The translations under genes and the position numbers were made by a program. From NCBI GenBank assembly GCA_030765785.1, contig JAVCCC010000048.1, forward strand, positions 872-64,871: a DNA stretch of 64,000 nucleotides. The letters run 5' to 3'. Below the pieces are notes generated by a model. That model was not told the origin of the DNA, made no database searches, and saw only the letters and a list, made by a program, of their open reading frames with translations. This document shows positions 38,657 to 64,000 of the stretch, piece by piece (position 1 is the first letter of the stretch; the number at the start of each line of letters is the position of its first letter). Source of the DNA: Candidatus Aceula lacicola (lineage in GTDB: Bacteria; Omnitrophota; Gorgyraeia; Zapsychrales; Aceulaceae).

Positions 38657-39628
38657 ATGAATGATTTAAAGAAATCGCGTGTTGCAGTAACTGGCGGAGC
38701 AGGATGCATTGGTTCTTTTGTTGTTGATGAGGTGATTAAACGAGGGGTTAAGGAAGTCGTTATTGTTGACAATTTTACTCGAGGATTAAAAAAGAATATT
38801 GAGCCAGCGATAGCTTCGGGTTGTGCTCGGCTAGTCGATGGAGACATTAGAGACTTTGATTTAATGAAAAAAACATTTAAAGGAATTGACTATTGTTTTC
38901 ATTTGGCGTCATTAAAGATTATTCAGTGCGTTGATGAGCCGCGTCACGCCTTAGAGGTAAACGTTGATGGAACATTTAATGTTCTTGAGGCTTGCGCAGA
39001 CAATAATGTGAAGAAAGCTGTATTTTCGTCCACGGCGTCCATTTATGGACAAGCAGATATTTTTCCTATCAAGGAAACACATCATCCTTATAACAGTCAC
39101 ACGCTTTATGGTGCGTTTAAGGTTGCAAATGAGTTGATGTTTCAATCTTTTTATCAGATGAGAGGGCTGAAGTTTAATACGCTTAGGTATTTTAATGTAT
39201 TCGGTCCTCGCATGGACGCGCATGGAAAATATACAGAGGTTTTAATTCGATGGTATCGCTTGATCAAGGAAGGTAAACAGCCGTTGATTTATGGTGACGG
39301 AAAGCAAACGATGGATTTTATTTATGTTGAGGATGTTGCAAGGGCAACCGTTTTGGCGCTTACAGCAGATATTTATAATGGAGTTTTTAATTGCGCAAAT
39401 GGGAAAGAGACGTCGCTAGAGGAGCTTTGTTGTGCATTGCTTGAGGTGATGGGTTCTGATTTAAAGCCAAAATATGTGCCGATACCAGAGGATCGAAATA
39501 AAATTGAAGTGATACGTCGCTTGGCAGATGTTTCAAAGGCGAAAGAAGAGATTAATTTTAAAGCACAAGTGACCTTAAAAGAAGGATTAAAGGAATTGGT
39601 GAAATGGCTGGAAACTCAGAAAATGTAA
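38657..39628 (+). CDS. NAD-dependent sugar-nucleotide epimerase/dehydratase of the UXS/ArnA-C-terminal type (UDP-glucuronate decarboxylase-like).
   Basis: GGAGCIGSFVVD Rossmann, DNFTRG, catalytic YGAFK. RYFNVFGPRMD matches the RIFNTFGPRM block of the UDP-xylose synthase/ArnA decarboxylase family rather than GalE. Confidence 0.65.
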   Translation: MNDLKKSRVAVTGGAGCIGSFVVDEVIKRGVKEVVIVDNFTRGLKKNIEPAIASGCARLVDGDIRDFDLMKKTFKGIDYCFHLASLKIIQCVDEPRHALEVNVDGTFNVLEACADNNVKKAVFSSTASIYGQADIFPIKETHHPYNSHTLYGAFKVANELMFQSFYQMRGLKFNTLRYFNVFGPRMDAHGKYTEVLIRWYRLIKEGKQPLIYGDGKQTMDFIYVEDVARATVLALTADIYNGVFNCANGKETSLEELCCALLEVMGSDLKPKYVPIPEDRNKIEVIRRLADVSKAKEEINFKAQVTLKEGLKELVKWLETQKM

Positions 39629-40887
39629 AGAAAATAATACCGATTACACGTCCGTTTTTTGGTGAAGAGGAGGTCGGTGCGGCATCCGAAGTCATTCGTT
39701 CAGGGTGGGTGACGCAAGGCCCTAAGGTAAAAGAATTTGAAGATGTTTTTGCTTCTTATGTTGGGTCAAAACATGCATGTGCTGTATCAAATTGCACAGC
39801 CGCACTTCATTTGGCTTTGTTAGCCGTTGGTGTTAAGCCAGGAGACGTTGTTATTACGGTCAGCCATTCTTTTATTGCAACGGCTAATAGTGCACGATAT
39901 TGTGGCGGTGAGCCAGTCTTTATCGATGTTGAAAAAGATGGTTTTAATATGTGCCCACAAGCCTTGAAGCAATTTTTGTCTAGTGAATGTGAGAAGCGGC
40001 CAAGCGGTTTGTTTTATAAAAACGTCAGCAAGCTTATTCGAAGCGAGTCGCCTTTATCGAGCCTCATTGGGGATGATAAAGGAAAGGTTGAGAATTTTGG
40101 GCGTATTGCTGCCATTGTTGTTGTTCATCAACTTGGCATTCCGTGTAATTTAAAAGAAATTTTGCCGATTGCGCAATCATATAAGATTCCTGTTGTTGAA
40201 GATGCAGCGTATGGAACGGGAAGCGAAATATCTTTGGATGATGGAAAAACATGGGAAAGAATTGGAAAGCCGCATGGAGATATTGCTTGCTTTTCATTTC
40301 ATCCAAGAAAGCCTATCGTGACAGGAGAGGGCGGTATGCTAACGACGAGCAATGAGGAATATGATGCATTATTTCGTCTGCTGCGGCATCAGGGCATGGC
40401 CGTATCCGACCTTGTTCGGCATCAATCAAAGAAAATTATCATCGAAGATTATATTGTGACTGGATATAACTATCGAATGACAGATATTCAGGCTGCTATT
40501 GGTATTGAGCAGTTAAAGCGATTGCCAGAGATGATGTGTCGAAAAAAAGAGGCAGCTCGGTTTTATTCTGAAAATCTCTCAGATATTTCTTGGCTAGAAA
40601 TATTTAAAGATTTATCTTATGCTCGCAGCAATGCGCATAATTATCCAGTTTTAATTGATAAGAACTCGCCAATGGATCGTGATTCTTTGATGCAGCACCT
40701 ATTGGATCGAGGTATTTCAACGCGCCCATGTGTTATGAATTCTCACTATGAAATTCCATACCGGTCCGATTTATGGTCGTTGCCAAATTCTGAAAACGCA
40801 AGGGACAACGGTCTTCTCTTGCCTATGTTTTATGAAATCACCGATGATGATCTTAAGAAAATAGTTGAGGAATTTAGAAATGTCTAA
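39604..40887 (+). CDS. DegT/DnrJ/EryC1/ArnB-family PLP-dependent sugar aminotransferase.
   Basis: PLP-lysine context FSFHPRKPIVTGEGGML. Overall DegT fold, with an approximately 45-aa insertion. Confidence 0.8.
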   Translation: MAGNSENVKKIIPITRPFFGEEEVGAASEVIRSGWVTQGPKVKEFEDVFASYVGSKHACAVSNCTAALHLALLAVGVKPGDVVITVSHSFIATANSARYCGGEPVFIDVEKDGFNMCPQALKQFLSSECEKRPSGLFYKNVSKLIRSESPLSSLIGDDKGKVENFGRIAAIVVVHQLGIPCNLKEILPIAQSYKIPVVEDAAYGTGSEISLDDGKTWERIGKPHGDIACFSFHPRKPIVTGEGGMLTTSNEEYDALFRLLRHQGMAVSDLVRHQSKKIIIEDYIVTGYNYRMTDIQAAIGIEQLKRLPEMMCRKKEAARFYSENLSDISWLEIFKDLSYARSNAHNYPVLIDKNSPMDRDSLMQHLLDRGISTRPCVMNSHYEIPYRSDLWSLPNSENARDNGLLLPMFYEITDDDLKKIVEEFRNV

Positions 40888-41533
40888 GAAATTACTCTTG
40901 TTTCCTTTTGGAGGTAGTGCGCGAGAAGCGTTTGTGACAATTCAGTCTTGTCCAGCCTTAGCGACCGAGTGGGATGTCATTGGTTTTGTCGATGATAATC
41001 CAGAAGCAAGAGAAAAAGAATGCTGTGGCGTTAAGGTTTTAGGAGGGCGCGAAGTTTTTGATGAGCATAAAGATGCTTATGTTTTAGCTGTTCCGGCACA
41101 TCCAGATATTTATTTAAAAAGAAAAGAAATCATTGATGGACTTAATATTGATTCCAAAAGATGGGCAACCATTGTTCATTCGTCTTGTGTTGTTTCTGAA
41201 GATACCAACATTGGAATAAATACTATTGTAATGCCTTTTGGCTTTGTTAGCACAAAAGTAAATATTGGAAATCATTGCGTTGTTTTATCAAGATCTATTA
41301 TTTCACACGATGTCCGTATTGCAGATTATTGTTGTTTTGGAGGGCATGTTACGATTTCTGGATCTGTGAAAGTTGACGAACAATCTTACATTGGGTCGTC
41401 TGTTACGATTCGTGAAAATATTCATATTGGAGAAAAGAGTTTAGTGGGAATGGGTTCCAATGTGATTTCAGATGTTGGCGCAAAGACAGTTGTTGCAGGA
41501 AACCCTGCAAAGGAAATTCGAAAAGCCGAATAA
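40865..41533 (+). CDS. PglD/NeuD-like hexapeptide-repeat sugar N-acetyltransferase.
   Basis: N-terminal Rossmann-like LLFPFGGSARE. C-terminal left-handed beta-helix hexapeptide repeats (IGNHCVV, IADYCCFGGHVTISGSV, IGSSVTIREN). Confidence 0.65.
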   Translation: MRNLEMSKKLLLFPFGGSAREAFVTIQSCPALATEWDVIGFVDDNPEAREKECCGVKVLGGREVFDEHKDAYVLAVPAHPDIYLKRKEIIDGLNIDSKRWATIVHSSCVVSEDTNIGINTIVMPFGFVSTKVNIGNHCVVLSRSIISHDVRIADYCCFGGHVTISGSVKVDEQSYIGSSVTIRENIHIGEKSLVGMGSNVISDVGAKTVVAGNPAKEIRKAE

Positions 41534-41560
41534 CAAAACAAATTAATCAAGGAAGCGCAT

Positions 41561-42481
41561 ATGATTTCAATTATTTTTCCCGTATTTAATGAACAAGAAA
41601 ATTTAGAAGAGTTGTATCAGCGTGTTCTTGCTGTTGCTTCAAAAGTGGATGGACATGATTTTGAGCTTGTTTTTGTTGATGATTGCTCGTCAGATCAAAC
41701 GCCAGAGATTTTGCGAAGTTTGCATTCGAAAGATAAGCGCGTCAAAGTCATTCGATTTGCTCGCAATTGTGGCGGACATGCGGCATTGACCGCAGGTCTT
41801 TATTATTGCAAAGGTGATTGCGCAATTACTTTAGCTGCAGATTTGCAGGATCCCCCAGAGCTTATTTTGGATCTAGTTGCAAGCTGGAAAGATGGTGCCA
41901 AGATTGTTTGGGCAGCTCGATCCAAGCGAGAGGGAGAAAGCCTTTCTGTGAAGGTTTTTTCAAAGCTTTATTATGCTTTTATTAACTTATTGACGGATGT
42001 GAAGATGCCAAATCTGGGGGTTGATGTTTTTTTAGCTGATCGTGTTGTTGTCGAATCACTTAAAAGTATGCCAGAAAAGCACAGCTCTATTTACATGGCT
42101 TTAGCTTGGCTTGGATTTCCTCAAACGACAATTGAATATGTTAAGGTAGCAAGGACAAAAGGTGCCTCTAAATGGAGTTTAGGCAAAAAGATAAAGCTGA
42201 TGATTGATTCGATCTTGTCTTTCAGTCATGTCCTTATTCGATATATGAGCATCTTGGGACTTGCGACAGCATTTGTTGGATTTGTTTATGCTGCATGGGT
42301 TGTTGGTAAAGCAATCTTTTTTGGATTGGCGGTTGAAGGGTGGTCTTCTTTGATTGTGGCCATTCTGGTTGTTGGTGGTGTCCAGATGATGATGCTTGGT
42401 GTTTTAGGAGAGTATTTGTGGCGAACATTTGATGAATCAAGACGAAGACCACGTTTTGTTATTGAATACAAAATTGATTAA
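41561..42481 (+). CDS. GT2 polyprenyl-phosphate glycosyltransferase, ArnC/DPM1/GtrB-like, with two C-terminal TM helices.
   Basis: ISIIFPVFNEQENL, DDCSSD (DxD), C-terminal TM pair. Same architecture as ArnC. Confidence 0.7.
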   Translation: MISIIFPVFNEQENLEELYQRVLAVASKVDGHDFELVFVDDCSSDQTPEILRSLHSKDKRVKVIRFARNCGGHAALTAGLYYCKGDCAITLAADLQDPPELILDLVASWKDGAKIVWAARSKREGESLSVKVFSKLYYAFINLLTDVKMPNLGVDVFLADRVVVESLKSMPEKHSSIYMALAWLGFPQTTIEYVKVARTKGASKWSLGKKIKLMIDSILSFSHVLIRYMSILGLATAFVGFVYAAWVVGKAIFFGLAVEGWSSLIVAILVVGGVQMMMLGVLGEYLWRTFDESRRRPRFVIEYKID

Positions 42482-42487
42482 AATTTT

Positions 42488-44320
42488 ATGAAGCAAAAAC
42501 ATTTTATATTTTCAATAAGCGTTCTAGCGCTTATGATGATCTCGCTTGTTGTCAAGCATCTCAGTCCGTCTTTAATCGAACATCTTTATGCAAATAAGCA
42601 GCTGCTTGTCCTAAATCTTTTTTCAGGTAATTTTGATGTAACTGTGCAATCGCTTGATTTCTATTTAGGGCGATCACGGGAAGTTGTTTTTGGACCGCTG
42701 AGCATGGTTTTATCCGGAATAGCGCTTATTCTATTTTGCTTGCGATACTTAAAACAATTAAATTTCTGGAAATTTACCGCTACTTTTTTCATTTATTTTG
42801 TAATCACAAAGTTTGAAGTTTTATTTTTTCCTCCTTATGGGGATTCGGCAAGCGGTCCTGTCATTGAAGCGATTTGGCTTTTGCATAATAATTTCAACTA
42901 TGCAAAGCTGGCTGGAGAAGAGGTGTTTGTTCGCGGAGGACCAAAGGTTTATTTGTTCTCGCTCTACCCAACGTATTTGGCATTGTTGATGAAAATGATT
43001 CCTCATACCAAGACATTTTTGGCAGTTAATCATTTAATCATTTTTGGTCTAAGTGCTGTGATTTTTTCTTTTTTCCGCTCAATCGCACGCAAGATTTTTG
43101 ATGAGAAATTGTCCGTCCTGTTGTCTATTTTTCTTTTATCTTTGCCGTTAGTTCAGAGTCAGATTGAACAAATCAATATGGAGATTCCTGTTTTATTTTT
43201 TATTGTATTGTCACTTTATTTTTTGTCCGAAAAAAAGATTTTGCATGCATCTATTTTTTCTGGTTTAGCCGTTTTCACTAAGCTTTATGCTGCGTATATG
43301 GGTGGGGCTGTGTTCTTTGTTGGGTTGTATTTATTTTTCTTTGGACAAGAACAGAAGAAAGATTTTAAGGTTCTTGGATCGAGCATTCTTTCTATATTCT
43401 TTGTGATCACAGGAGCCTTGTGCCTTTTTCTTTTTATGGATCTTGGCGGGAAGATTGATAAGGTAGGTGCGTTTCAGGGGTTTGCTCTGATGAAAACATT
43501 TCCGATTAGTTATTTTTATTTTTTAAGTTTAGTCGCATTTATTGCTTTTGCGTTTCGTGTTTTAAGGGAGCAAGGGAGGAACTCTTTCGACAATGTTGTC
43601 AATTTCTTAAACGATCATTACAGAGTAGTGGTTTTGTTTGTTTGTTCGACAGGATGGTTTGTTTTGTTCTTAAACTCTGGGTGGATCCCTCCACGGTATA
43701 CATTTATTTTGTTGCCGTCATTGATTTTAGGAATTTTTTACGTAATTCATATTCTCATCAGGAATAAAGAAATTGTGGCGCACGGAGTTATGGGTTTGAT
43801 TCTCGTCGAATTTTTGTGTTCATACGGTCTTGCATATACTCCTGTGACGATTCAAGATCATGCCATTGTGGAAAGAAGCCTTGAATATCGTAACGATGTT
43901 ATGTTGCATATGGAGCTCGCTCGTCTTGTTGAGCAAAAATATTCGAATTTAATCGTGGCAGCGCCTTTTACGTTTGCGCAAGCGTTGGCTTTTCCTGAAA
44001 TGGGTTTCACGCGAAAGAAATTAGATGTCATGATTTATTTGTTTCCCTGCACCTATGAGGGCATTAGGCATTTTGAAGGACTCGAGAACGTAAATCCAAG
44101 AGATGTTGTTTGGGTCGGAGTTAAAACGCCTTTTATGAAAATTGAATATCTCCCCAACGGGCCACATGACCTTGTCATTGAAGAATTGCAAGTTGGTAAT
44201 AAAAGTGCGAATTTATTTATTGGCGGGTTTTCTGTAAACGCTCTATATCATTATGGGCAGTCTTTGGTTAAGCAACTTGAGGCGCAAGGTATTAAGAAAT
44301 TAGAGCTTAAAGCCTACTAA
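42488..44320 (+). CDS. Large polytopic membrane protein, 610 aa, possible GT-C-fold glycosyltransferase.
   Basis: At least 12 predicted TM helices with a C-terminal soluble domain of about 150 aa. Context next to the ArnC-like GT2. Confidence 0.35.
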   Translation: MKQKHFIFSISVLALMMISLVVKHLSPSLIEHLYANKQLLVLNLFSGNFDVTVQSLDFYLGRSREVVFGPLSMVLSGIALILFCLRYLKQLNFWKFTATFFIYFVITKFEVLFFPPYGDSASGPVIEAIWLLHNNFNYAKLAGEEVFVRGGPKVYLFSLYPTYLALLMKMIPHTKTFLAVNHLIIFGLSAVIFSFFRSIARKIFDEKLSVLLSIFLLSLPLVQSQIEQINMEIPVLFFIVLSLYFLSEKKILHASIFSGLAVFTKLYAAYMGGAVFFVGLYLFFFGQEQKKDFKVLGSSILSIFFVITGALCLFLFMDLGGKIDKVGAFQGFALMKTFPISYFYFLSLVAFIAFAFRVLREQGRNSFDNVVNFLNDHYRVVVLFVCSTGWFVLFLNSGWIPPRYTFILLPSLILGIFYVIHILIRNKEIVAHGVMGLILVEFLCSYGLAYTPVTIQDHAIVERSLEYRNDVMLHMELARLVEQKYSNLIVAAPFTFAQALAFPEMGFTRKKLDVMIYLFPCTYEGIRHFEGLENVNPRDVVWVGVKTPFMKIEYLPNGPHDLVIEELQVGNKSANLFIGGFSVNALYHYGQSLVKQLEAQGIKKLELKAY

Positions 44321-45672
44321 GAGTCCTCACTCCAGAACGAATAAAAACTAAAAAAGACAATAGTCGGAAGAAGATAGAAGGCAATGCGACTTGCCGTGCA
44401 TTCTAGGCGCCAGGTAAGGTCGAAGTGTGCGGTTGTCAGGTAGACATATAATAAGGTGATAAAGAAGAGAGCGAAGAATGTCAGGAATATTTTGTTTTCA
44501 TTTCGAATGAGGTTTTTAGGTCTAAAGATTCCAAGAAGGACAACGAGCACCCATATAAAATTCCATCCTCGATTCAAAAGTTCTGTTTTATAAAACCCTA
44601 CAGTGGTAAGAAATCCCTTGATGTTACAGAATTCCAGCTCTTTTGTTAATGGATTAAATAAAACTTCTCTTGTCGGTGGCGCTAAGAATATTTTGAAAAT
44701 AAGAGTCGCCGCTCCTGTCATTGCGATGCCTATAAATAAGAATTTAATGATAGAGATTGCATTTGCACGATTTAAATCTTTATTTAAAAGAAGGTAGGCG
44801 GATGTAAGCCCTGATAGAAAGACGAGCATAACGATGCCTTCATTCTTTGCAAACGGCATAAACCCTAAGAAAAGCCCGGCGAGAAAAGCAATCCGATGAT
44901 TTTTTGTTCTAAGCATTGTTATAAGTAAAATGACACTTGAAAGAAGAAAATAGGATAAAATAACATCGGCATACTGTGTTGTGCTCCAGAAAATATAAGA
45001 CGGTGTTGACATAAGAAGAATGGAAGCAAGAAAGGCGATCCATTTTTTTATGAATTGAGACAATCCTGCATAAAGAAGAAGTCCGCAGGAAACTGAAAAT
45101 ATAATAGATGTCATTGATGCCGCAGCAATCATCCCTCTTTGAAATACCGAAAAAATCCATGTATTAATAAGAGGTAGAAGAATGGGGTAGCTTGGTTGCG
45201 TGTGCCAGTGAACCTTTGCGAAGTCTTTCCAGCGCTCTGCACCAAAAATAAGAAATTTTGCTTTCATGTTGTAAAGGCCCCACGCATCCCATCCTCCGAA
45301 AGGATATTGCTTTGATAAAATAGCGATAATAATAATAACGATACTCCAGCAGATGCCGCAGGTGACATAAAATTTGATATTGCTTTTTTGTTCAAGAAGA
45401 CTTTTGTCGTTATTGTCTGATGGAAAATAAAAGATATTGGCAATAAATAAGCCTAGCAATACGGTAAAATTGATTCCAAGGATAGCCGCTTGATTAAATT
45501 GGCCAAAAACAAAAAGGGAATAAAATGTCAACGTCGCAGACACGCCAATTCCAAGCCCAATAGAAAGGCAGAGTATGAGCGTCGTTGGAAGAGGTGGCTG
45601 ATCTTTTAAAATAATACGAATGATAAAGAACCCAATGAAAAGCGATATAAGGTAGGTTAAAAGATCAATCAT
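44317..45672 (-). CDS. Polytopic membrane protein resembling ArnT/PMT-type GT-C glycosyltransferases (GT39/GT83-like).
   Basis: 451 aa. About 11-12 TM helices and a short first-loop region rich in aromatic/acidic residues. Forms a minus-strand operon with 45665..46090 and 46374..48026. Confidence 0.4.
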   Translation of the reverse strand: MIDLLTYLISLFIGFFIIRIILKDQPPLPTTLILCLSIGLGIGVSATLTFYSLFVFGQFNQAAILGINFTVLLGLFIANIFYFPSDNNDKSLLEQKSNIKFYVTCGICWSIVIIIIAILSKQYPFGGWDAWGLYNMKAKFLIFGAERWKDFAKVHWHTQPSYPILLPLINTWIFSVFQRGMIAAASMTSIIFSVSCGLLLYAGLSQFIKKWIAFLASILLMSTPSYIFWSTTQYADVILSYFLLSSVILLITMLRTKNHRIAFLAGLFLGFMPFAKNEGIVMLVFLSGLTSAYLLLNKDLNRANAISIIKFLFIGIAMTGAATLIFKIFLAPPTREVLFNPLTKELEFCNIKGFLTTVGFYKTELLNRGWNFIWVLVVLLGIFRPKNLIRNENKIFLTFFALFFITLLYVYLTTAHFDLTWRLECTASRIAFYLLPTIVFFSFYSFWSEDS

Positions 45673-46090
45673 TATAGCGCTCCGAGATTATTTTTCCAAA
45701 AGGATTGATATAGGTAGGTTTCGCGCGAATAATAGATAAAATTGCTTTTGCAGAATCTGGAGTCGGTGCATTGATTATATTTATCTTATGGCCTGGATTG
45801 CTAAGATCAAGCAAAACAGGGGCAAGCATGTATTGGGCCATCATGAATTGTCCGTCGTTATCCTCGGGTGTCGGAGTTATATCGCTTAAGAACCCAACAG
45901 CAGTTTCGTCTTTCAACTTGTCCTTAAGGTCAAAGTATTGAAAACCAGGCTCAGTTGATCTGTTTCCAATCGTTGTGATTTGCGCCATGATGCTGACAAA
46001 GTTGACCGCAAGATTAATCGCAATCAGCAGAATAATAATTCCGATAATAAAGCTGGTTAAATATGATATTTTTTTATTTTTTATTTTCAT
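45665..46090 (-). CDS. Small membrane-anchored periplasmic protein (hypothetical).
   Basis: 141 aa with an N-terminal signal-anchor (FIIGIIILLIAINLAV). Overlaps the downstream gene by 8 bp. Confidence 0.35.
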   Translation of the reverse strand: MKIKNKKISYLTSFIIGIIILLIAINLAVNFVSIMAQITTIGNRSTEPGFQYFDLKDKLKDETAVGFLSDITPTPEDNDGQFMMAQYMLAPVLLDLSNPGHKINIINAPTPDSAKAILSIIRAKPTYINPFGKIISERYND

Positions 46091-46373
46091 GTTTTTAATA
46101 TTTGTTGAAAAACATTATAGCCTAAAAAGAACGCAAACACAATTTTTACGAGTAATTTAGAATAAAGATGGTAATTTGAAATATTTTCTCAAGAAGCAAC
46201 TTAACCTAAACAATCTGGATGTCAGTTGGCCATTTTTTTTAAAGATGGAGGTTCTAGATAAAGATTAACGCTAATAGCGTTGAAACAGTAAACGCTTTGC
46301 CTGTGAAAGCGATGGAACTTATGCCATTTGTTGTAATATATTCTTTGCAAAGCTGTAAAATCAGAAATATATT

Positions 46374-48026
46374 TTATGATAAAAGTTTTAATAAACGTTT
46401 TGGGAGAGAAATATTTCTTTTCTTTAATTCATTCAGATATTTTTCTGTTTCTCGTGATTTTCCTTCTCTTGAATAATCATAGAGAAAAAGCAAATATGCT
46501 CCGAGATTATCGGGATTAATTTCTAAGGCCTTATTTAAGAAAATTCTTGCTTCTTTTTTTCGATTTTGTCGATATCGTAACAGTGCAAAGCTTACATAAA
46601 TATCATCACCGGAAGGGTTGTATTTTACTTCTAAAAGGAATTCTCTTTCCGCTTTTTTAAGGTCACCTTCTTGAGCGTAAAGGTTTCCAAGGTTTTTATG
46701 AATTCTAATAAGTCTCGGATAAAGTGATAGAGCATAGAAATAACTTTTTTTTGCAGCCTCTTTAAATCCCATCATTTCGTACGTTCTGCCTAAATTGGCA
46801 TGAGCCGTTGGTAAGCTTGGCGAGCCTTGGACCGCCGCGTGCCAAAAATTCCAACTATTTTTAAGGATATTGCTATATTGAAAGGTTGTTCCGAAAAGCA
46901 AACTTATAGTAATAACAGTAAAAATAAAAAGTTTTTTTGGCTGTTGCACAAGTTTTTTTACAAGATTTGTTTCCATTAAAACAATTAGAAACCCGATTAA
47001 AGGAATATACATTCTATATTCATAAAAAGTAAGGCTAATGGCTAAGCCTGGTAAGAGGAACAATAAAAACCATAAAATTCCAAAAATGATATGCTTGATC
47101 CTTTTAGTTGGCGTTGCCCAGATAAGAAATCCGACAAAGAAAAAAACAATAATTCCAAAAATTAAAGAAGTGTTTTCGACAATCGGTGTTGGACAAAGGT
47201 TAAATGGTAAAATTGTTTTACCGAGATGAATTAGAAGGCTGGGCAAATTATGAAAAACAGATTTTAAAATAAGAAAAAGAGGCACTTCGGGAGATTGTGA
47301 AAGAACAGCGAAGCGTATAAGAAGCCAAGCACTAATAATCGATAGCCACGACAGCGGCAACCAAAGCTTTTGAATAAAAATCTTTTGTTTACAATATAAA
47401 AGGTAGGCGCAGAGCATCATTGCAATTGGGATAACGATGGCTGTTTCTTTTGTAAAAAGAGCAAAGATAAAAAAGAGTAAATGTCCAAAAAAATACCTTT
47501 TCTTGTCTGTTTCTAGAAAATACAAGAAATAAATGAAAGAAACTAAAACAAAAAAAGCAAAGAGAGTTTCTGTTCTGCCAGGAATCCACCCAACAGCAAG
47601 CGTCATCAAAGGGTGAACCGTAAAGATTAAAGAAAAACTAAGGGCAAGGGCTTTGTCGTATTTTAAGCGTTGAAATAAAAAGAAAACCAAACAGCAATTA
47701 ATCGCGTGCAAATTTAAATTTGTAAGCCGATAGCCCCAAAGTGAAGCTTTGTAAATAATGGTGTCGCTCATAAAGGAGAGCGTTAGAATAGGGCGATATA
47801 AAAAATCAGTTACAAAATCTGGTCTGAAGAAAGCTTCCAAAGCTCTTGACCAATCTTTTAAGAACCAGTGATACCGTATTAGCCAGACTTCATCATCAAA
47901 ATGTGTTAGATCAAAGAAGAGAGTTTTAAAAAATAAAAGAAATACGACAAAAACGATCCACCCATAAGGATGCCATGAAGAAAGAAAAATATTTGAAATG
48001 TTGAGAGATTTGTTTTCTTTTTTCAT
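46374..48026 (-). CDS. Multi-TM N-terminal domain fused to C-terminal TPR repeats. Architecture like TMTC/PMT_2-family O-glycosyltransferases.
   Basis: About 400 aa of hydrophobic helices followed by at least 3 TPR units (AHANLGRTYEMMGFKEAAKKSYFYALSLYP, IHKNLGNLYAQEGDLKKAEREF...). Confidence 0.5.
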   Translation of the reverse strand: MKKENKSLNISNIFLSSWHPYGWIVFVVFLLFFKTLFFDLTHFDDEVWLIRYHWFLKDWSRALEAFFRPDFVTDFLYRPILTLSFMSDTIIYKASLWGYRLTNLNLHAINCCLVFFLFQRLKYDKALALSFSLIFTVHPLMTLAVGWIPGRTETLFAFFVLVSFIYFLYFLETDKKRYFFGHLLFFIFALFTKETAIVIPIAMMLCAYLLYCKQKIFIQKLWLPLSWLSIISAWLLIRFAVLSQSPEVPLFLILKSVFHNLPSLLIHLGKTILPFNLCPTPIVENTSLIFGIIVFFFVGFLIWATPTKRIKHIIFGILWFLLFLLPGLAISLTFYEYRMYIPLIGFLIVLMETNLVKKLVQQPKKLFIFTVITISLLFGTTFQYSNILKNSWNFWHAAVQGSPSLPTAHANLGRTYEMMGFKEAAKKSYFYALSLYPRLIRIHKNLGNLYAQEGDLKKAEREFLLEVKYNPSGDDIYVSFALLRYRQNRKKEARIFLNKALEINPDNLGAYLLFLYDYSREGKSRETEKYLNELKKRNISLPKRLLKLLS

Positions 48027-54118: not shown

Positions 54119-54520
54119 ATGAGACGGAAATTTATTATTTTGACATCACTCTGTATTTTTGCGCTCATGTTCTGCTTTGATTGTTTTGCTGGCTTGATTG
54201 ATTGGGAACGGCGTAATCGTTATCTTAAAGACAAGCAGCAAGAGTTAGGGTCTGAGGGTGTTCTTAGTGAGGATGCGCTTCCGGAGTGGATGAGGAAAGA
54301 GCCAAGGGTTAAGACGAAAGATGAAAAGCGACATGATATCAATCGTGATGGAAAGCTTCAGCCTGCAGAATCCAAAGTTTATTTAAGGCGTGTTATTCGA
54401 AAAGTAGAAAATGGAGGCAAGGTGGTATCGACATCCGAAATTCTTAAAGAATATGATAAGAATAAAGATGGTGTTATAACTCAGACTGAAGTTATTGAAA
54501 TAAGAGGGGATGTGTTTTAA
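54119..54520 (+). CDS. Small secreted protein with two EF-hand-type calcium-binding loops.
   Basis: Signal peptide ILTSLCIFALMFCFDCFA. Two loops fitting DxNxDGxIxxxE: DINRDGKLQPAE and DKNKDGVITQTE. Confidence 0.5.
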   Translation: MRRKFIILTSLCIFALMFCFDCFAGLIDWERRNRYLKDKQQELGSEGVLSEDALPEWMRKEPRVKTKDEKRHDINRDGKLQPAESKVYLRRVIRKVENGGKVVSTSEILKEYDKNKDGVITQTEVIEIRGDVF

Positions 54521-55919: not shown

Positions 55920-56288
55920 ATGCTTATTATTTTTTTAAAGTTATTTCTAATGCAGATCGTTGTTGGTGCTGTTGTTGTCTTTATTCTCAAGAAAGTGCTG
56001 GATCATCAGCTTGTAGAGCTAGCCATCAAAACGTTTAAGAATGCAAAGCTTGAGCCAGATGACTTAAAGCTTGGAAGTATTCTTGCCAGTTCTCCGGGTA
56101 GTGTATCAAAAAAGATTCAAGATCGTGTTTCTCAAGTAGCTGAGAAAAAATTTGGTCGACCAATGTCCATTGTCATAAAAAAAGACAAAAATCTTAAAGG
56201 TGGATTGATTATTTATTTGAATAGTTCGATTATTGATTATAGTTTAGTAGGGCGCCTGAAAGAGGGCGGAATTATTAGAAAAATATGA
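55920..56288 (+). CDS. Small membrane-anchored hypothetical protein.
   Basis: 122 aa, N-terminal TM (IVVGAVVVFIL), charged C-terminal domain. No confident family assignment. Confidence 0.3.
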   Translation: MLIIFLKLFLMQIVVGAVVVFILKKVLDHQLVELAIKTFKNAKLEPDDLKLGSILASSPGSVSKKIQDRVSQVAEKKFGRPMSIVIKKDKNLKGGLIIYLNSSIIDYSLVGRLKEGGIIRKI

Positions 56289-58431: not shown

Positions 58432-59310
58432 ATGGCTTACCATACATTACTTGGATTTAAAAAAGAACCTTTTTCTACGAGTCCAGACCCGCAGTTTTTC
58501 TATCTTACTAAAGAACATGACATGGCATTAACAAGTATCCTGATTGAACTTCGATTAAGGCGAGGCCTGACCGTTATTCTTGGTGATATCGGAACGGGAA
58601 AAACAACCCTTTCTCGAAAGCTTGTCCAAGAGCTAAAAGATCGTGGCAATATGATTTTCCACATGATTTTAAATCCAGATTTTGAAACAGAGGAGCAATT
58701 CCTAACAACACTTTTACGTAATTTTGATGTTGAGCTGACCGATGAATCAATGTCGGACATGGCAAATATTTTAGAGCTACGCGATTCTGTTGAAAAATTC
58801 TTAATCCAAAAAGCTGAAGAAAAACAAACCATTATTTTGATTGTTGACGAAGCGCAAAAGTTAAATTTAGTCACGCTTGAAGTTTTGCGTGTTTTGCTAA
58901 ATTTTGAGACGAATGAATATAAATTAATTCAGCTTGTTCTTTTAGGGCAGCTTGAACTTTATTCAAAAATTGTTTCCATGCCAAACTTCATTGACCGCGT
59001 AAGCTTTAAATATACGCTCAATCCTCTTGATATAGACGAGACCAAAGCGCTCATTCAGTATCGCATCCGGCAGGCTGGATATGAGGGGCATATGCAGCTT
59101 TTCAATGATGATGCGGTGAGTGAGATTTATAACTATTCGCGAGGGTATCCAAGACACATTACGATGCTTTGCCATAAAGTTTTAAAGGAATTGATTTTGC
59201 AAAATCGCGAAGCAGTTGACAGAGATATCGTTTTAAATGTTTTAGAAAAAGAGCGTCGTGTCGGATGGGGACGTGCGGAATCTTTTAGGCGAGGAAATCC
59301 GACATTTTAA
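58432..59310 (+). CDS. ExeA/GspA-like AAA+ ATPase.
   Basis: Walker A LGDIGTGKTTL, Walker B IILIVDEAQ, overall ExeA-like N-domain. Confidence 0.6.
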   Translation: MAYHTLLGFKKEPFSTSPDPQFFYLTKEHDMALTSILIELRLRRGLTVILGDIGTGKTTLSRKLVQELKDRGNMIFHMILNPDFETEEQFLTTLLRNFDVELTDESMSDMANILELRDSVEKFLIQKAEEKQTIILIVDEAQKLNLVTLEVLRVLLNFETNEYKLIQLVLLGQLELYSKIVSMPNFIDRVSFKYTLNPLDIDETKALIQYRIRQAGYEGHMQLFNDDAVSEIYNYSRGYPRHITMLCHKVLKELILQNREAVDRDIVLNVLEKERRVGWGRAESFRRGNPTF

Positions 59311-59330: not shown

Positions 59331-60041
59331 ATGGCTAAAAAAGAAACCGCAGAACAAAAGCTTTTAAAAATTATCGAAGGCGATTCGGAGACACCGGAAC
59401 AATCTTCGGGTGAACAAACGTCTGATCAATCACAGCAAGTCGCTCAAGAGGTTGCCTCTGCTGTTAAAGGGACTGGCGTTTCAGCGCCACCTATTTTTTC
59501 TGCTGTTTTAGATAGAATGAGGGATTTGCAGATTCCCATTCCTAGTTTAAAATCGCTTGGCCTCAGAGAGGCTAATTTTGTGCTGATGGTTATGATTATT
59601 TTTTCTGTTTTAATCTTAGGTTCCGTGTATCAATCGGAAACAAAAAATATGTCGAATAATTTAAATTTTGTCGAAGATGTGATAAAGCCAAAAATTGCAA
59701 AAGCCGTAAGCATCATGCCAGAGTATCAAAATCTAGCATCGTTTTTAGAAACAATTTTAACGCGTAATATTTTTAGGCCTTACGAAGAAAAGGAATCCGA
59801 GGTAGCGAACGGGATTCCACTTGGAACGCAAAAGATTGCATTAAAATTGGAAAAGTTAAAGTTGGTCGGAATCTCTTGGCTTGATATGCCAAATTCGGCA
59901 TCAGCCATGGTTGAGAACGCTGACGGGATGACGTATTTTCTGAAAGAAGGGGAAAATATTAATCAAGTAACGATTAAAGCCATTTATGCTGATCGTGTTG
60001 TTTTTAGCTTTGAAGATCAAGAAATGGAAATTCGTCTATGA
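59331..60041 (+). CDS. Hypothetical bitopic membrane protein.
   Basis: 236 aa. Acidic/Gln-rich N-terminus, one TM (FVLMVMIIFSVLILGSV), periplasmic C-domain. Overlaps the secretin gene start. Confidence 0.3.
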   Translation: MAKKETAEQKLLKIIEGDSETPEQSSGEQTSDQSQQVAQEVASAVKGTGVSAPPIFSAVLDRMRDLQIPIPSLKSLGLREANFVLMVMIIFSVLILGSVYQSETKNMSNNLNFVEDVIKPKIAKAVSIMPEYQNLASFLETILTRNIFRPYEEKESEVANGIPLGTQKIALKLEKLKLVGISWLDMPNSASAMVENADGMTYFLKEGENINQVTIKAIYADRVVFSFEDQEMEIRL

Positions 60042-61639
60042 CAAGCAACAAGGGGCATTTGAAGCGTATGAGAATTATTCAGTATTTTGTTTTGTTTGTT
60101 TTAGCCTTTGCGGTATGTTCAACAAAGACTTTTGCTGTTGGTCCTATTGATCAACCTAAGACGATTGTCTTTGAGGAAAAGCAGGAACCCTTCGAGGAGC
60201 GCATTAATCGAAAAATCACTTTGGATGTTCGCGATATGAACATCCTTGATGTTATTAAGTTTTTGGCCATCAAGGGTGATTTTAATGTTGTCACAAGCAA
60301 AAGCGTAGAAGGGCGCGTTACTCTGTATTTGAAAAGCGTATCGATTAAGGACGCGCTTGATATTATTTTGATATCAAATGCGCTTGCTTATCAAATTCAA
60401 AAAGATATTGTTCATGTCATGTCCGAGTCAGAATATGTTGCAACATATGGACGAAAGTTCAACGACCAAAGTATTGTCAAAACAATTCATTTGAATTATT
60501 CAAAACCAGAATATATTTTATCAACACTTGATAGCATTAAAAGCAGTTTGGGAAAAATTGTTATCGATGAGGACACAGGCACGGTTGTCATGATTGATAC
60601 GCCTGAGGCCATTGCAAAGATGGAAAAGGCTTTAAAAGAAATTGAAAAGCCAATGGAAGCATATACTTATACTTTGCAATATGCTAAGGCTGACGTGCTG
60701 GTTGAGAAATTTAAAGGTCATCTTGAGAACAATGCCGTTGGGTCTATTGTGGCCGATGAGAGATCAAATCAAATTGTTGTGCGAGCCTTACCAGGTCGAC
60801 GAGAAGAAATCATGAAAGTCATAAAAGATCTTGATACAAAAACCAAAGAGGTTTTGATTGAGGCGCAAATTGTTCAGATTACGTTTCGTCCGCAATACGA
60901 CATGGGGATTGATTGGAATTTGGATTTTCTTAATAGTTCTGATAAAGAGATCAGAAAGCTTAGCTTTGAAAATGTTTATCTTGATGCGGATAATTTAACA
61001 ACATCAGATCCTTTATTTTCTCAGTTTGGGAAAATTGCGTTTGGTAATATTAGTCAGGATCATTTTCATGCAAACATTCGCGCTCTCAGGCAGGTCAGCG
61101 ATACAAAGATTTTATCTAATCCACGAATACTTGTTACAAACGGGCAAGAGGCCAAGATTCATATTGGCGACACCATTCCCTATATTATTTCAACAATATC
61201 TGGAACCGGAGATAGTGCGATCACCAGCGAAGATGTTCGTTTTGTCGATGTAGGATTAAAGCTTGTTGTCTCTGCCAATATTAATGACAAAGGATTTGTC
61301 ACGATGAATTTAGCGCCAGAAATTTCGACGGTAACAAGTTATGTCGACTCGCAAGGCGGCGGTATTCCACAGGTTAACAAAACAGAAGTTGAGACATCTG
61401 TTATTGTTAAGGATGGCACAACGATTGTCATGGGTGGACTTAAAAAGGATGATAAAAAGCACATCAAAAAAGGTTTTCCGTTCTTGATGGATATTCCTTT
61501 TTTGGGAAATTTTTTTAGCGCAACAAGCGATGATATCACAACAACAGAAATTGTTATTTTTATCACTCCGCACATTGTGTCTGGTGAGGAACATTATTTA
61601 GATGCAAGAGGGACCATCAAGCCGTACAAGTCGTATTAA
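60038..61639 (+). CDS. Secretin (GspD/PilQ family outer-membrane channel).
   Basis: Signal peptide, N-terminal secretin_N-like repeats, conserved C-terminal secretin domain (ILSNPRILVTNGQEAKIHIGDTIPY, VVKDGTTIVMGGL, TEIVIFITPHIV). Confidence 0.8.
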   Translation: MTSNKGHLKRMRIIQYFVLFVLAFAVCSTKTFAVGPIDQPKTIVFEEKQEPFEERINRKITLDVRDMNILDVIKFLAIKGDFNVVTSKSVEGRVTLYLKSVSIKDALDIILISNALAYQIQKDIVHVMSESEYVATYGRKFNDQSIVKTIHLNYSKPEYILSTLDSIKSSLGKIVIDEDTGTVVMIDTPEAIAKMEKALKEIEKPMEAYTYTLQYAKADVLVEKFKGHLENNAVGSIVADERSNQIVVRALPGRREEIMKVIKDLDTKTKEVLIEAQIVQITFRPQYDMGIDWNLDFLNSSDKEIRKLSFENVYLDADNLTTSDPLFSQFGKIAFGNISQDHFHANIRALRQVSDTKILSNPRILVTNGQEAKIHIGDTIPYIISTISGTGDSAITSEDVRFVDVGLKLVVSANINDKGFVTMNLAPEISTVTSYVDSQGGGIPQVNKTEVETSVIVKDGTTIVMGGLKKDDKKHIKKGFPFLMDIPFLGNFFSATSDDITTTEIVIFITPHIVSGEEHYLDARGTIKPYKSY

Positions 61640-62681
61640 AGAGATGATCTTTAGAATTTTTAATTTTGGTTTATTAAATAAAGAGGAGAGAATGAAAAAA
61701 TCTTTTTCAAAAAATTATTTTCTGCATTGTCAGAATTTTATTCTGCCGTTGATTGCGCTTGTATTTTTGTGTTCGCCAGCCTTTGCTCAAAGCGATTCAG
61801 CGATGAGACCCAACAAGGTTATCGAGACAGAGATTGACGCGGATCAAATTATTGATAGCGCAACGCATGAGGACGCGAGGAGCGAAAGGGTGACAGTTTC
61901 ACGAGAAGAAAATCAAATGGCACGGATCAATAAGAGCTTGAGAAATCTTATTGATGAAAATCAAGCCTTAATGAAAAGCGGTGAAGCGCTGCAAGAAGAA
62001 CTTGAGAGATTAAGAGGTGAGAGAACCATCCAGGACAGCCGACTAAATGTGCTAGCCAAGGAAAGAAGCAATCTCCTCAAGCAATCAAGAGAAATTAACA
62101 ATATAAACCAGACGTATGAAAAACAAATTGCAGATTTGACCGCAAGCATTGAGCGAACAAAGGGTTTAACCCCAGAAGAAATTAGAATGCTTACTGAACT
62201 TGAATCAATTGTTGAAAAAGATGCGCCAGCTGCTTTTAGCAATCAGGCAGTAGAAATTGCCGTAGAAAACAAGGATGTGTCGCCGCGCTCTCAGATTTCT
62301 GTTGCAAAAGGGGTCGGGGAAATGGCTGAAGAGTTAGATGATCTGATTGAAGAAAATCAAATTTTACGAAAAGACACCATTAAACTTCACTATAATTTAG
62401 CCAATTTATTTTTTGAACAAGGGAAATATGAAATGGCAGCCGCAGAATACAAGCGCGTTTTGGATTTGATGCCACAGGATGCCGCAACGCACTATAATCT
62501 TGCGTTTGTCAGTGAAGAATATTTAGATGACTACAAAACCGCGTTAAAACATTATCAAGAATATTTGCTGATTGCTTCAAGCGCAGAGGATATCGGCGTT
62601 GTTAAAAATAGAATTTTGGAATTAAAATTAAAAATTCAAAATAAAATTAAATCGATTATTGATAAGGAAAGACCATATTAA
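61602..62681 (+). CDS. Secreted coiled-coil/TPR protein, possible pilotin or secretin accessory.
   Basis: Signal peptide (LIALVFLCSPAFAQS), long coiled-coil middle, C-terminal TPR units (YNLANLFFEQGKYEMAAAEYKRVLDLMP, HYNLAFVSEE...). Confidence 0.45.
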   Translation: MQEGPSSRTSRIKEMIFRIFNFGLLNKEERMKKSFSKNYFLHCQNFILPLIALVFLCSPAFAQSDSAMRPNKVIETEIDADQIIDSATHEDARSERVTVSREENQMARINKSLRNLIDENQALMKSGEALQEELERLRGERTIQDSRLNVLAKERSNLLKQSREINNINQTYEKQIADLTASIERTKGLTPEEIRMLTELESIVEKDAPAAFSNQAVEIAVENKDVSPRSQISVAKGVGEMAEELDDLIEENQILRKDTIKLHYNLANLFFEQGKYEMAAAEYKRVLDLMPQDAATHYNLAFVSEEYLDDYKTALKHYQEYLLIASSAEDIGVVKNRILELKLKIQNKIKSIIDKERPY

Positions 62682-62862
62682 GAAGTTTTTTTTTATGTCT
62701 TTTGCTTTGAATAGGTTAAATGCTTTTTTGAAATGAAAACGTTTTCTTTAGATCGCTTGTAAAGTATTTTATTTTCAGCAGTTTAGGTTGAAATGGTGTA
62801 GGTTATGTTTTATACTTATAACGGAAGAAAAAGGTAAAATTTATTTACTTATATTATTTATT

Positions 62863-64000
62863 ATGATGAAAAAACAACGCAATTATTTATTTCCTATCTC
62901 ACTCGTTTCTTCCAAGCAGGATTTTTTAAAACTAAGGCGCATTTTGTCCTTTGCGCTTTGTCTTGTTTGGGGATCTCTCCTTTTTTGCCCAGTATCTTTT
63001 GCCCAGTATGCTAGTGGTTCTGGTACGACGTCTGCGGTGGCCACCTCTGATGAAATGAGCTATGCGTATATCACTTTTGCTACTGAACCGAGCACAATTC
63101 TTGCTGGAGACTATATGAACTGCACCCTTAATCTTGTCAGTGGTCAAGGTGTTTTAGTTAACACGGGAACATGGTCTGATGACAATGTCATACTTAGCAT
63201 TTACAACAATCCTTCCACTTCTACCTTAGTAGGAACAACCTCTCGGCTTTTTTCAAGTGGTGTGGCGGCTTTTAACGATAGTTATGGATTGACGATAGGT
63301 TCTCTAGGTGAACTTTTTACGCTTAAGGCCACACTTACTAGCTGTCCGACTATTTATGGTATTTCGCGTGCGTTTGATGTTTATCCGGTTGACAGCGTTG
63401 ATGTTGTTTCTGAAGAAGTCGTACTAGATACTGTTACCAAAGATTTTGCTGTGGAAGGTAGTACTCTGGAAGGCGATACTCTGGATATAGGAACGCCGGC
63501 AGAGACAGGGGAGTATGATACGCGCTTTGATAATCTTGATGCTGCCGTTGCGGCTGTTGATTCTGCCGTTGCAGATGTTGATGCTGCCGTTGCAGTTGTT
63601 GGTGCTAATGTTTTAGTTGTTGGTGCTAATGTTTTAGTTGTTGATACTGTCGTTGACAATGTTGCTACTGACCTTAAAACTGTTGATGGTAATGTTGATC
63701 TAATCCTTGCCGAAATCGTCGGAGGAGGAACCCAAGATTTAGGTGAGTATGATGCGCGTTTTGATTCTATTGATGCAGCCCTTGCAGCTATGGGTGTTGT
63801 CGATTGGGCTGATATGGGAGATATGGTTGAGGATTATCGAGCGGGGGGATGGAGTTCCGTCGAGTGGCAGCTGTTGGATCATCAAATGACTCAACAGGGA
63901 ATGGGGGGATGGCATTCGGATGAATGGACCAAGTTAAGATATTTCGTTGACGGTTATGGGAATTCTGGCTGGGCCACTTTGGATTGGAACAATTTAGAGA
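62863..64000 (+). CDS. Large secreted repeat-rich protein, 3'-truncated by the window end. This ORF is open to position 64000 and is not in the supplied complete-ORF track.
   Basis: Manual translation gives a signal-like N-terminus (LRRILSFALCLVWGSLLFCPVSFAQ), Thr/Ser-rich beta-like region, repeated GEYDxRFDxxDAA(V/L)AA modules, VGANVLV tandem and W-rich C-terminal repeats (GGWSSVEW, GGWHSDEW, SGWATLDW). Confidence 0.5.
   Translation, partial: MMKKQRNYLFPISLVSSKQDFLKLRRILSFALCLVWGSLLFCPVSFAQYASGSGTTSAVATSDEMSYAYITFATEPSTILAGDYMNCTLNLVSGQGVLVNTGTWSDDNVILSIYNNPSTSTLVGTTSRLFSSGVAAFNDSYGLTIGSLGELFTLKATLTSCPTIYGISRAFDVYPVDSVDVVSEEVVLDTVTKDFAVEGSTLEGDTLDIGTPAETGEYDTRFDNLDAAVAAVDSAVADVDAAVAVVGANVLVVGANVLVVDTVVDNVATDLKTVDGNVDLILAEIVGGGTQDLGEYDARFDSIDAALAAMGVVDWADMGDMVEDYRAGGWSSVEWQLLDHQMTQQGMGGWHSDEWTKLRYFVDGYGNSGWATLDWNNLE
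63598..63639 (+). repeat. Perfect tandem duplication of a 21-bp unit (gttggtgctaatgttttagtt x2) inside the repeat-protein gene; in-frame VGANVLV x2.
   Basis: Direct reading of 63598-63618 and 63619-63639. Confidence 0.7.

Follow-up and report, generated by a model that had tools for sequence, protein, structure and literature searches.

Described giant proteins and the locus of Candidatus Aceula lacicola

The Omnitrophota, a group of ultrasmall bacteria that are abundant but for the most part uncultured, are suspected of a host-dependent or predatory life, and their oversized surface proteins are leading candidates for the machinery of contact. West-Roberts et al. (2023), who set the threshold of a giant gene at 30,000 amino acids (aa) or more, found that such genes of Omnitrophota are generally preceded by a locus resembling a type II secretion system (T2SS) or a type IV pilus (T4P), and proposed adhesion to prey and attack on its cell wall as the role of the products (bioRxiv 10.1101/2023.11.21.568195). 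Nielsen and Lui (2026), with a threshold of at least 10,000 aa, reported secretion or pilus genes in the flanks of 13 of 14 giants, and 137 of 916 long proteins without any domain match (bioRxiv 10.64898/2026.06.07.730766). We analysed a stretch of 64,000 nucleotides (nt), hereafter the window, from a contig of Candidatus Aceula lacicola, a species defined from metagenome-assembled genomes (MAGs) and named from Ace Lake, Antarctica (PMC8542988). The 3' end of the window is occupied by an open reading frame (ORF) for a repeat protein rich in tryptophan (Trp). We read it, with a probability of roughly 0.55, as the 5' end of the gene of a very large, highly acidic, fibrous repeat protein exported by the Sec pathway and linked to a secretin. 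The paper describing the species, searched by term, mentions neither secretins, pili, adhesins nor this locus (PMC8542988).

The gene fits the published picture of giant genes lying beside T2SS/T4P-like loci: the genome is one of Omnitrophota and the flanking genes are of T2SS/T4P type. As in the described giants (Archaeovorins, the Dockerin type and the class of "tandem-repeat scaffold"), the product is oversized, of extracytoplasmic type and dominated by repeats, the gene breaks assemblies and is preceded by secretion genes including a GspD-type secretin, and the proposed role is adhesion. There are also differences. In the 1,664 N-terminal residues recovered here there are no regions rich in transmembrane segments and no SecA-DEAD, C39, HEAT, dockerin or TSP3 domains as in the Archaeovorin and Dockerin types; the repeat is a Trp motif of 13 to 20 residues absent from Pfam and NCBIfam; and the secretion genes form a compact four-gene module (GspA-like, GspC/N-like, secretin, TPR protein), whereas the giants have a locus of more than ten subunits with rcpC and a peptidyl-prolyl isomerase. 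With at least 1,664 aa recovered, the full length may fall well below the thresholds of 10,000 and 30,000 aa. The undescribed Trp repeat, a conserved promoter and the compact secretin module are what is new here.

Other known systems share single parts of this arrangement. The ExeA/ExeB-ExeD (GspA/GspB-GspD) T2SS and the MshL/MshM/MshN set likewise combine a secretin with an AAA+ ATPase of ExeA type, a TPR protein and a small partner resembling GspB/C/N; here, however, the family matches lie below cutoffs, no E/F platform, pseudopilin or pilin genes are found nearby in the window, and the ATPase is missing in two related Omnitrophota MAG loci, L009 and L010. With the immunoglobulin (Ig)-like giant adhesins (Big_1 proteins such as invasin and intimin; RTX adhesins such as LapA, SiiE and MpIBP) the protein has in common a putative Ig-like domain, of a family that forms long tandem arrays elsewhere, and a very long, acidic, repetitive polypeptide of extracellular type. 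It carries, in contrast, one Ig-like copy only, an N-terminal Sec signal instead of a C-terminal signal for type I secretion (T1SS), and lacks RTX nonapeptides as well as neighbouring genes for T1SS or β-barrel partners. This N-terminal signal, neighbours that are not T1SS genes, and C-termini of the relatives P0002 and P0003 that carry no Pfam or NCBIfam domain set it apart from T1SS RTX adhesins and from trimeric autotransporters of type V secretion (T5SS). CW_binding_1 repeats (~20 aa) and glucan-binding YG repeats are also units of ~13-20 residues with an invariant aromatic residue and a Gly, in long tandem arrays on surface proteins; they give no sequence match, and the present consensus reads as one capped α-helix per unit whereas theirs is a β-hairpin.

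An open frame of at least 1,664 codons

The preliminary description of this DNA reported a forward ORF open from 62863 to 64000. The frame, which begins with ATG-ATG, indeed runs over 379 codons without a stop; with a stop frequency of 0.074 per codon at the composition of the window, the probability of such an opening is ~2.4e-13. It was extended with L001, a 246-kb JGI contig retrieved from public assemblies via the TPR protein encoded upstream. L001 is nearly identical to the window (one single-nucleotide polymorphism in 1301 nt) and keeps the frame open for 1,664 codons (4,992 nt; probability 4e-56), up to the contig end. The sole difference is G/A at 63903, giving Met/Ile at aa 347. This polymorphism splits assemblies of one population, Met being found in the window and in P0001 (a copy of the repeat protein on a 424-kb ENA contig), and Ile in L001 and L003.

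Among the places returned, L001 has the longest DNA 3' of the TPR gene (5.2 kb). The other contigs examined also stop within the gene: L002, L003, the ENA contig (after 488 aa), and L089, a contig of GCA_035358335.1 ("Candidatus Omnitrophota bacterium") encoding the ortholog P0014. Exact repeats of at least 60 nt, some reaching 274 nt, cover 1,275 of the 4,993 nt of the L001 gene part, and it is because of such long exact repeats, visible in the sequence, that the contigs end inside the gene. The array would expand and contract fast, breaking short-read assemblies. The gene is a clear case of systematic truncation by these assemblies, which is the likely reason for the annotation "hypothetical protein, partial".

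A word-indexed search of 5.8 billion proteins with the window ORF returned P0001 as sole match, itself ended by its contig end. A 36-nt stretch taken from the L001 end, searched as an exact pattern, had 0 matches in a metagenome contig collection, and the 1,664-aa query, compared at the protein level with metagenome and genome contig collections, found no confirmed relative; these collections evidently lack the contigs concerned. In other species the forward frame is conserved at the protein level (P0014, P0016, P0018). P0016 lies on L092, which is apparently chimeric or frameshifted after 240 aa and was used solely for promoter and N-terminus alignments. The first 450 nt of the gene are non-repetitive, yet open and conserved. 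Two antisense ORFs, 62932..63147 and 63381..63659, both started by TTG, exist mechanically; they had been called shadows of the gene, and both the cross-species conservation of the forward frame and its 4,992 open nt in L001 uphold this. The L001 frame and the signal-peptide features likewise bear out the proposal of a large, repeat-rich protein with a secretion-type N-terminus, and we hold it very likely that a real extracytoplasmic giant repeat protein is encoded.

Domain organisation of the protein

The gene and its parts are distributed as follows (TRF, Tandem Repeats Finder; φ, hydrophobic residue):

62863..64000, + strand: start of the gene for the giant secreted Trp-repeat protein, which runs off the window after 379 of its at least 1,664 codons; N-terminal translation and L001 extension
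62863..63003, + strand: long signal peptide, aa 1-47, with a basic n-region of 26 aa, an h-region of 20 aa and a VSFA/Q cleavage site; by inspection
63004..63408, + strand: single putative Ig-like β domain, aa 48-182, member of a homologue family; copy in the window without Pfam match
aa 183-215, + strand: acidic linker
63508..63795, + strand: Val-heptad segment, aa 216-311, about nine 7-residue units (e.g. VAAVDSA) between two GEYDxRFDxxDAA boxes; TRF and heptad register
63594..63643, + strand: perfect 21-bp tandem duplication of 2.4 copies; TRF match 100%, score 100
63796..64000, + strand: first Trp-repeat units, with W spacing 15+5 and a helix-start motif [DE]-W-x-x-φ-x-x-φ plus G-W; units start at aa 314, 334, 354 and 374

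The N-terminus, MMKKQRNYLFPISLVSSKQDFLKLRR, is followed by a hydrophobic core of 20 residues (peak of mean Kyte-Doolittle hydropathy 2.18) and by VSFA/QY. The signal peptide holds seven K+R and one acidic residue, and by inspection of the sequence VSFA/QY fits a signal peptidase I site under the -3/-1 rule. Six homologues can be aligned over the h-region and the A-Q motif, and most of these over the basic n-region as well. The N-terminal Sec/Tat signal that characterises T2SS substrates is present by inspection and largely conserved in the orthologs. A lipoprotein was considered and rejected, as a conserved lipobox is absent.

The region that follows had been described as Thr/Ser-rich and of beta type. 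This description is corrected here: the region forms a discrete domain of ~130 aa, for which many homologues exist. When 1.84 billion representative sequences were searched exhaustively with HMMER, 95 proteins matched at E<=1e-3. In nearly all of them the match is confined to aa ~50-180 and recurs in up to 33 stretches of a single protein, the proteins reaching 4,248 aa; judged from these sequences, such tandem multi-copy behaviour suggests an Ig-like adhesin module. Pfam returned nothing for the window copy and only weak matches among 22 homologous copies: Invasin_D3 in four (best 5e-5), Big_1 in two and GH2_C5 in three. A profile of the domain found nothing significant among PDB sequences. 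A single-sequence AlphaFold2 (AF2) model of P0001 places β strands at 67-145, with a predicted local distance difference test score (pLDDT) of 35.6 that makes it unusable. The whole N-terminus, including the signal peptide and the A-Q site, is common to P0014, P0016, P0018, P0030 and P0089.

Beyond the acidic linker, repeated acidic modules had been noted. The sequences are present (GEYDTRFDNLDAAVAAVDSAVADVDAAVA at aa 216-244, 63508-63594; GEYDARFDSIDAALAAMG at aa 294-311, 63742-63795), but the label does not hold: they belong to a segment of Val heptads such as VAAVDSA, VADVDAA, VAVVGAN and VLVVGAN. TRF detects a 21-nt period at 63536-63606 (88% match), 63594-63643 (100%) and 63639-63687 (75%). 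The second of these is the perfect 21-bp duplication already seen in the preliminary description, which encodes VGANVLV twice (63598-63639). It is identical in the independent assemblies L001, L003 and P0001 and so is not an artefact of a single assembly. The heptad segment would oligomerise the N-terminal part of the protein.

The Trp/Gly-rich repeats (GGWSSVEW at 63844-63867, GGWHSDEW at 63904-63927, SGWATLDW at 63964-63987) were rightly recognised, but they are not C-terminal: they are only the first three to four units, and the array they open extends over at least 1,350 residues in L001, from aa 312 to aa 1664 or beyond. Distances between Trp are 15+5 (a 20-residue unit, e.g. DW-NALEDLATDYTAAGW-ATA), 17 (W-NNLESVAQNIMTQGVC-W) or 20, and from aa 1492 a strict 13-residue unit GINWQDIDDMSxK takes over. 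The known 1,664 residues contain 106 Trp (6.4%); between aa 306 and 1491 there are 208 D+E versus 11 K+R. The core motif [NDEST]-W-x-x-φ-x-x-φ-[ASTV] was observed 50 times, versus 0.56 times in shuffled sequences (maximum 4). No hydrophobic segment follows residue 262 in the 1,664-aa sequence. A search of the rest of the window for a paralogue of the gene gave nothing beyond single, isolated matches to the motif.

A consensus of the 13-residue unit was built on 304 units of L001, L005, L008, P0002, P0003, P0005 and P0014, in which uninterrupted runs reach 73 units. It reads G-[IV]-N-W-x-[DG]-[IFLM]-x-[VA]-[LM]-[ST]-[KR]-x, with G1 conserved in 276, N3 in 297 and W4 in 303 of the 304 units. The unit is unrecognised by Pfam, NCBIfam and PDB sequences or profiles (best PDB profile E-value 0.12). 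Pfam and NCBIfam searches of L001, P0014, P0002 and P0005 detected no CW_binding_1, YG, LRR, dockerin/EF-hand, TSP3, pentapeptide or RTX repeats, and Pfam gave only spurious sub-threshold matches on the 1,664 aa. Among the 5.8 billion proteins, the 13-mer end of L001 matched four and the derived profile 42; nearly all are fragments on contigs shorter than 1.5 kb, and none bears a name other than "hypothetical protein". By these comparisons the repeat type is new and absent from domain libraries; the family is invisible to them and belongs to the "Pfam-dark" fraction already reported. A short version exists in P0005 (L090, 3948-4832), a complete protein of 294 aa in which a signal peptide and a β-rich domain are joined by no more than nine 13-mer Trp units. 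Its neighbours are unrelated housekeeping genes (MurB, LytB/IspH, GcpE/IspG); the repeat is thus found in small proteins, too, and at a distance from secretins.

Read in terms of helix-capping motifs, the consensus resembles a classic helix start: Gly would be C' of the preceding helix, Ile/Val would occupy N' and Asn the N-cap, while Asp at N3 would make up a capping box and the hydrophobic residue at N4 a hydrophobic staple. Each unit of 13-20 residues, with Asn or Asp as N-cap, would fold as a short capped α-helix plus a turn, and the invariant Trp would stack into a continuous aromatic core or ladder, forming a long, thin, negatively charged filament. An AF2 model of a 14-unit 13-mer array, run with a 24-row alignment, has a helix of 8-9 residues in most units, starting at or beside the Trp (pLDDT 47.1); this agrees, as a modelling hint, with the capping-box and hydrophobic-staple reading. 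Calcium-binding repeats of EF-hand or dockerin-like type were rejected, since the acidic positions are not conserved across species.

The secretin module and the promoter

Upstream of the Trp-repeat gene the following elements were identified (TPR, tetratricopeptide repeat):

58432..59310, + strand: ExeA/GspA-like AAA+ ATPase, first gene of the module; Pfam AAA_22 3e-19, TIGR03015 1.4e-55 (below cutoff)
59331..60041, + strand: GspC/GspB/GspN-like secretin-associated protein; T2SSC 2.7e-5 and T2SSB 1.6e-3 (Pfam), GspC_delta 7.7e-5 (NCBIfam), all below cutoff
60038..61639, + strand: outer-membrane secretin; Pfam Secretin 1.1e-46, Secretin_N in two stretches 2.4e-23, weak STN
61602..62681, + strand: secreted coiled-coil and TPR protein; Pfam TPR_11 2.5e-10, coiled-coil-type matches at aa 95-210
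62788..62816, + strand: σ70-type promoter of the Trp-repeat gene, -35 TTGAAA, 17-nt spacer, -10 TATACT; 10 of 12 matches in a consensus scan

These Pfam and NCBIfam assignments establish that the repeat gene lies directly downstream of a secretin module, as had been stated. The four proteins encoded upstream of it are exact NCBI matches to Candidatus Aceula lacicola, phylum Candidatus Omnitrophota (MDP8264960-63), and the best matches of the GcvPB of the window are Omnitrophota MAGs, with 66-67% identity and synteny. The ATPase is named "AAA family ATPase" by NCBI (MDP8264960.1); TIGR03015 is the model of the XrtA/PEP-CTERM-associated ATPase. Its gene is kept in the ortholog locus L089, and L009 and L010 have no ATPase gene between the second family-2 glycosyltransferase (GT2) gene and the GspC-like gene. 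NCBI names the GspC-like protein "type II secretion system protein N"; its N-terminus MAQKETAEQKLLKIIE is kept in L009 and largely in L010. Of the NCBIfam models, PilQ scores best for the secretin (252.6 bits against a cutoff of 284), followed by GspD and MshL, and none of the three reaches its cutoff. The cluster of the TPR protein contains forms of 359 aa and 329 aa, the latter being MDP8264963.1. The first ATG of the TPR ORF overlaps the secretin gene by 38 nt, and NCBI and several assemblies start at ATG 61692 (MKKSFSK...), which may be the true start, giving 329 aa.

The spacer between the TPR gene and the Trp-repeat ORF measures 181 nt. Both promoter hexamers and their surroundings are invariant in a four-species alignment (window, L089, L091, L092), while the rest of the spacer varies; the upstream region of the nanopore contig L093 is excluded from this alignment. 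Rfam has no family matching 62600-64000. With its own conserved promoter the Trp-repeat gene is more than a final cistron of the secretin operon, and from this predicted element it is probably transcribed independently of the secretin genes. In the AT-rich leader (62823-62862) no Shine-Dalgarno-like sequence lies 5-10 nt before the ATG; a purine-rich GGAAGAAAAAGG occurs ~28 nt upstream of it, near the predicted transcription start. These features of the leader sequence suggest initiation of a non-Shine-Dalgarno type.

Conservation of the locus in other species

The order secretin module followed by Trp-repeat gene recurs in three further species. In L089 each gene has its syntenic counterpart, from GcvP via the genes of the ATPase, the secretin and the TPR protein to the Trp-repeat gene of P0014, which ends at the contig end. 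L091 contains the C-terminus of a secretin, a TPR gene and an N-terminal homologue of the repeat protein; in both loci the TPR gene lies directly 5' of the Trp-repeat gene. L093 encodes a secretin, a TPR protein, two secreted proteins resembling formylglycine-generating enzymes (FGE-sulfatase-like), and then a signal-peptide start that leads into 13-mer coding sequence, frameshifted and at least 11 kb long. The synteny thus far indicates a link to the secretin that is conserved in every locus where it is examinable. Tandem FGE-sulfatase (SUMF1-like) paralogues follow the TPR gene in L093 (5922-9185), L009 (19103-21443) and L010 (19030-21449) and are absent from the corresponding position in Candidatus Aceula lacicola and L089. 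The L009 and L010 loci end after the FGE-like genes, and neither support nor contradict the link.

The last ~175 residues of L001, in the 13-mer block, are colinear with residues 617-791 of P0014, including an irregular 6-residue unit, and by this alignment the two proteins are orthologous. Their central arrays differ in length and in unit type. Between the two species identity reaches 76% for the secretins (window and L089) but only 35-39% for the N-terminal parts of the repeat proteins. Such fast evolution, as read from these alignments, is typical of exposed surface proteins.

The giant 13-mer proteins of L005 and L008 end in a non-repetitive, Trp-free, apparently α-helical tail with no recognised anchor domain. 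3' of their gene lie an unannotated protein with a signal-peptide-like N-terminus, an F-type ATPase operon, and MshEN-T2SSE and T2SSF genes. The operon, in the order β, ε, c, OSCP, γ, α, separates the 3' end of the giant gene from the MshE/GspF genes. L008 comes from the same nanopore sample as L093 and shares its repeat dialect; the two may represent opposite ends of a single gene that exceeds 30 kb. The C-termini of P0002 and P0003 have no Pfam or NCBIfam domain, and no anchoring domain (SLH, PEP-CTERM, YadA, β-barrel) was detected in the available sequence or in the C-termini of relatives. A PEP-CTERM cargo, suggested by TIGR03015 and PrsT matches, was rejected because the relatives' C-termini lack the PEP-TM-basic tail.

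Export, function and alternative explanations

After Sec translocation and cleavage of the signal peptide, the protein would use the T2SS/T4P-like machine built around the adjacent secretin to cross the outer membrane, or be retained at that machine, and its role would be contact with the surfaces of host or prey cells or with particles, as proposed for other Omnitrophota giants. Conserved synteny and precedent in the phylum speak for a functional coupling to the secretin module, to which we give even odds; export through the secretin is a plausible hypothesis, and a function in adhesion or contact seems to us about as likely as not. The suggestion of a secretin-exported adhesin, fibre or S-layer-like cargo is retained in part: the secretin adjacency is conserved (L089, L091, L093) and the pattern is published for Omnitrophota, but "S-layer-like" has no specific support. 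Several observations weigh against the reading as a whole. No genes for GspE/F, the T2SS inner-membrane platform, pseudopilins or pilins occur among the window ORFs scanned, which leave aside ~20 ORFs at ~12.6-37.4 kb, and E/F genes are tied to this type of locus only via other species and the assumed joining of L008 and L093. Adjacency is not strict, as L093 has two secreted genes between the TPR gene and the giant gene, and in L009 and L010 the genes that come next to the TPR gene on its 3' side encode FGE-like proteins. The gene has a promoter of its own and need not be co-regulated with the secretin. The C-terminus and full length of the Candidatus Aceula lacicola protein lie beyond all contigs examined, and the two AF2 models, at pLDDT 35.6 and 47.1, are of too low confidence to establish the fold. 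Characterised giant adhesins use T1SS or T5SS, and we know of no demonstrated secretin-exported protein of such size or shape.

Among the alternatives, the protein could be Sec-exported and then retained in the envelope (periplasmic, associated with the outer membrane, or coat/S-layer-like) without ever passing the secretin, the adjacency merely reflecting a neighbourhood of envelope biogenesis. Points in favour are an upstream region rich in envelope genes (an S41 peptidase, GT2-DUF2304-GT2, a PMT_2-type glycosyltransferase, a sugar epimerase, an aminotransferase and the dcw cluster), the separate promoter of the repeat gene, the possible intercalation of other secreted genes, and a protein size far beyond that of typical T2SS substrates. 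However, the secretin-TPR pair persists across species in front of the repeat gene even though the repeat proteins share only 35-39% identity, published surveys describe the same association for unrelated giant proteins, and the lack of a detectable anchoring domain speaks against retention; we consider this explanation worth keeping in view, though unlikely. Should the secretin link prove false, the gene would encode just another large repetitive envelope protein. A module forming a type IV (MSHA-like) pilus of MshL/MshM/MshN type, with the giant protein as an independently exported partner such as a pilus-cooperating adhesin and not as cargo of the secretin, would agree with PilQ as best NCBIfam match of the secretin and with the MshL match, with an ATPase and TPR combination that mirrors MshM/MshN, and with the MshEN domain of the relatives' downstream ATPase. 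It is made very unlikely by the lack of pilin and prepilin peptidase genes in the loci read, by family scores that all stay below curated cutoffs, and by the GspN name that NCBI gives to the small partner.

Two further explanations concern the sequence itself. The stretch aa 241-262 (AAVAVVGANVLVVGANVLVV), a hydrophobic stretch of 20 residues with a mean hydropathy of 2.36 over 19 residues, could be a transmembrane anchor, the Ig-like domain being periplasmic and the Trp array cytoplasmic, and many Omnitrophota giant proteins are membrane-anchored according to the literature. But the stretch is hydrophobic only because of the Val/Leu-rich heptads, including the 21-bp duplication: it is part of the 7-residue Val periodicity, lengthened by this recent duplication, contains two Asn and is bordered by acidic heptads, and P0014 has no comparable stretch outside its signal peptide. 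An anchor at this place is highly improbable. Repeats can also hold frames open, and given the two antisense ORFs the long ORF might be a non-coding artefact of repetitive DNA, the antisense ORFs being the true genes. The probabilities of the open frame given above, its conservation as protein across species, the conserved promoter and start upstream of it, and the non-repetitive first 450 nt already refute this.

For the reading as a secretin-linked Sec-exported fibre, the compact conserved module and the promoter provide a tractable handle on whether a secretin exports a fibre-like giant protein. A bolder version of it would make the 13/17/20-residue Trp units a new class of ultra-short solenoid, with "one capped helix per repeat", with a filament of hundreds of nanometres threaded through a dedicated, co-evolved secretin module, as the first secretin-dependent giant fibrous adhesin, tethering ultrasmall Omnitrophota to hosts or prey; taken as a whole, we find this rather unlikely.

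Other genes of the window

The remaining ORFs scanned with Pfam are housekeeping genes, dcw cell-wall genes and a glycosylation cluster. This cluster (38657-48026) encodes an NAD-dependent epimerase/dehydratase, a DegT-type aminotransferase, a GT2 enzyme and a PMT_2 (ArnT/PMT-like) polytopic glycosyltransferase, together with large polytopic membrane proteins, one of which has C-terminal TPRs. Three of its genes are on the minus strand, unlike nearly all genes of the window.

At 54119-54520 (+ strand) a small protein combines a hydrophobic, signal-peptide-like segment at its N-terminus, an EF-hand pair and weak dockerin-like matches, and a counterpart holds the same position in L089 (1157-1591); it could be a calcium-binding partner of the acidic repeat protein. 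A membrane protein of ~120 aa is encoded at 55920-56288 (+ strand), whose C-terminus matches the ATP synthase delta/OSCP domain (5e-7). Syntenic counterparts, just 5' of GT2-DUF2304-GT2 and the secretin module, are present in L089 (2951-3316), L009 (13499-13849) and L010 (13458-13799). Over positions 1-64000 nearly every large ORF is on the + strand, with a G+C content of 33-40% and a GC skew that is positive in all 2-kb bins (0.09-0.28).

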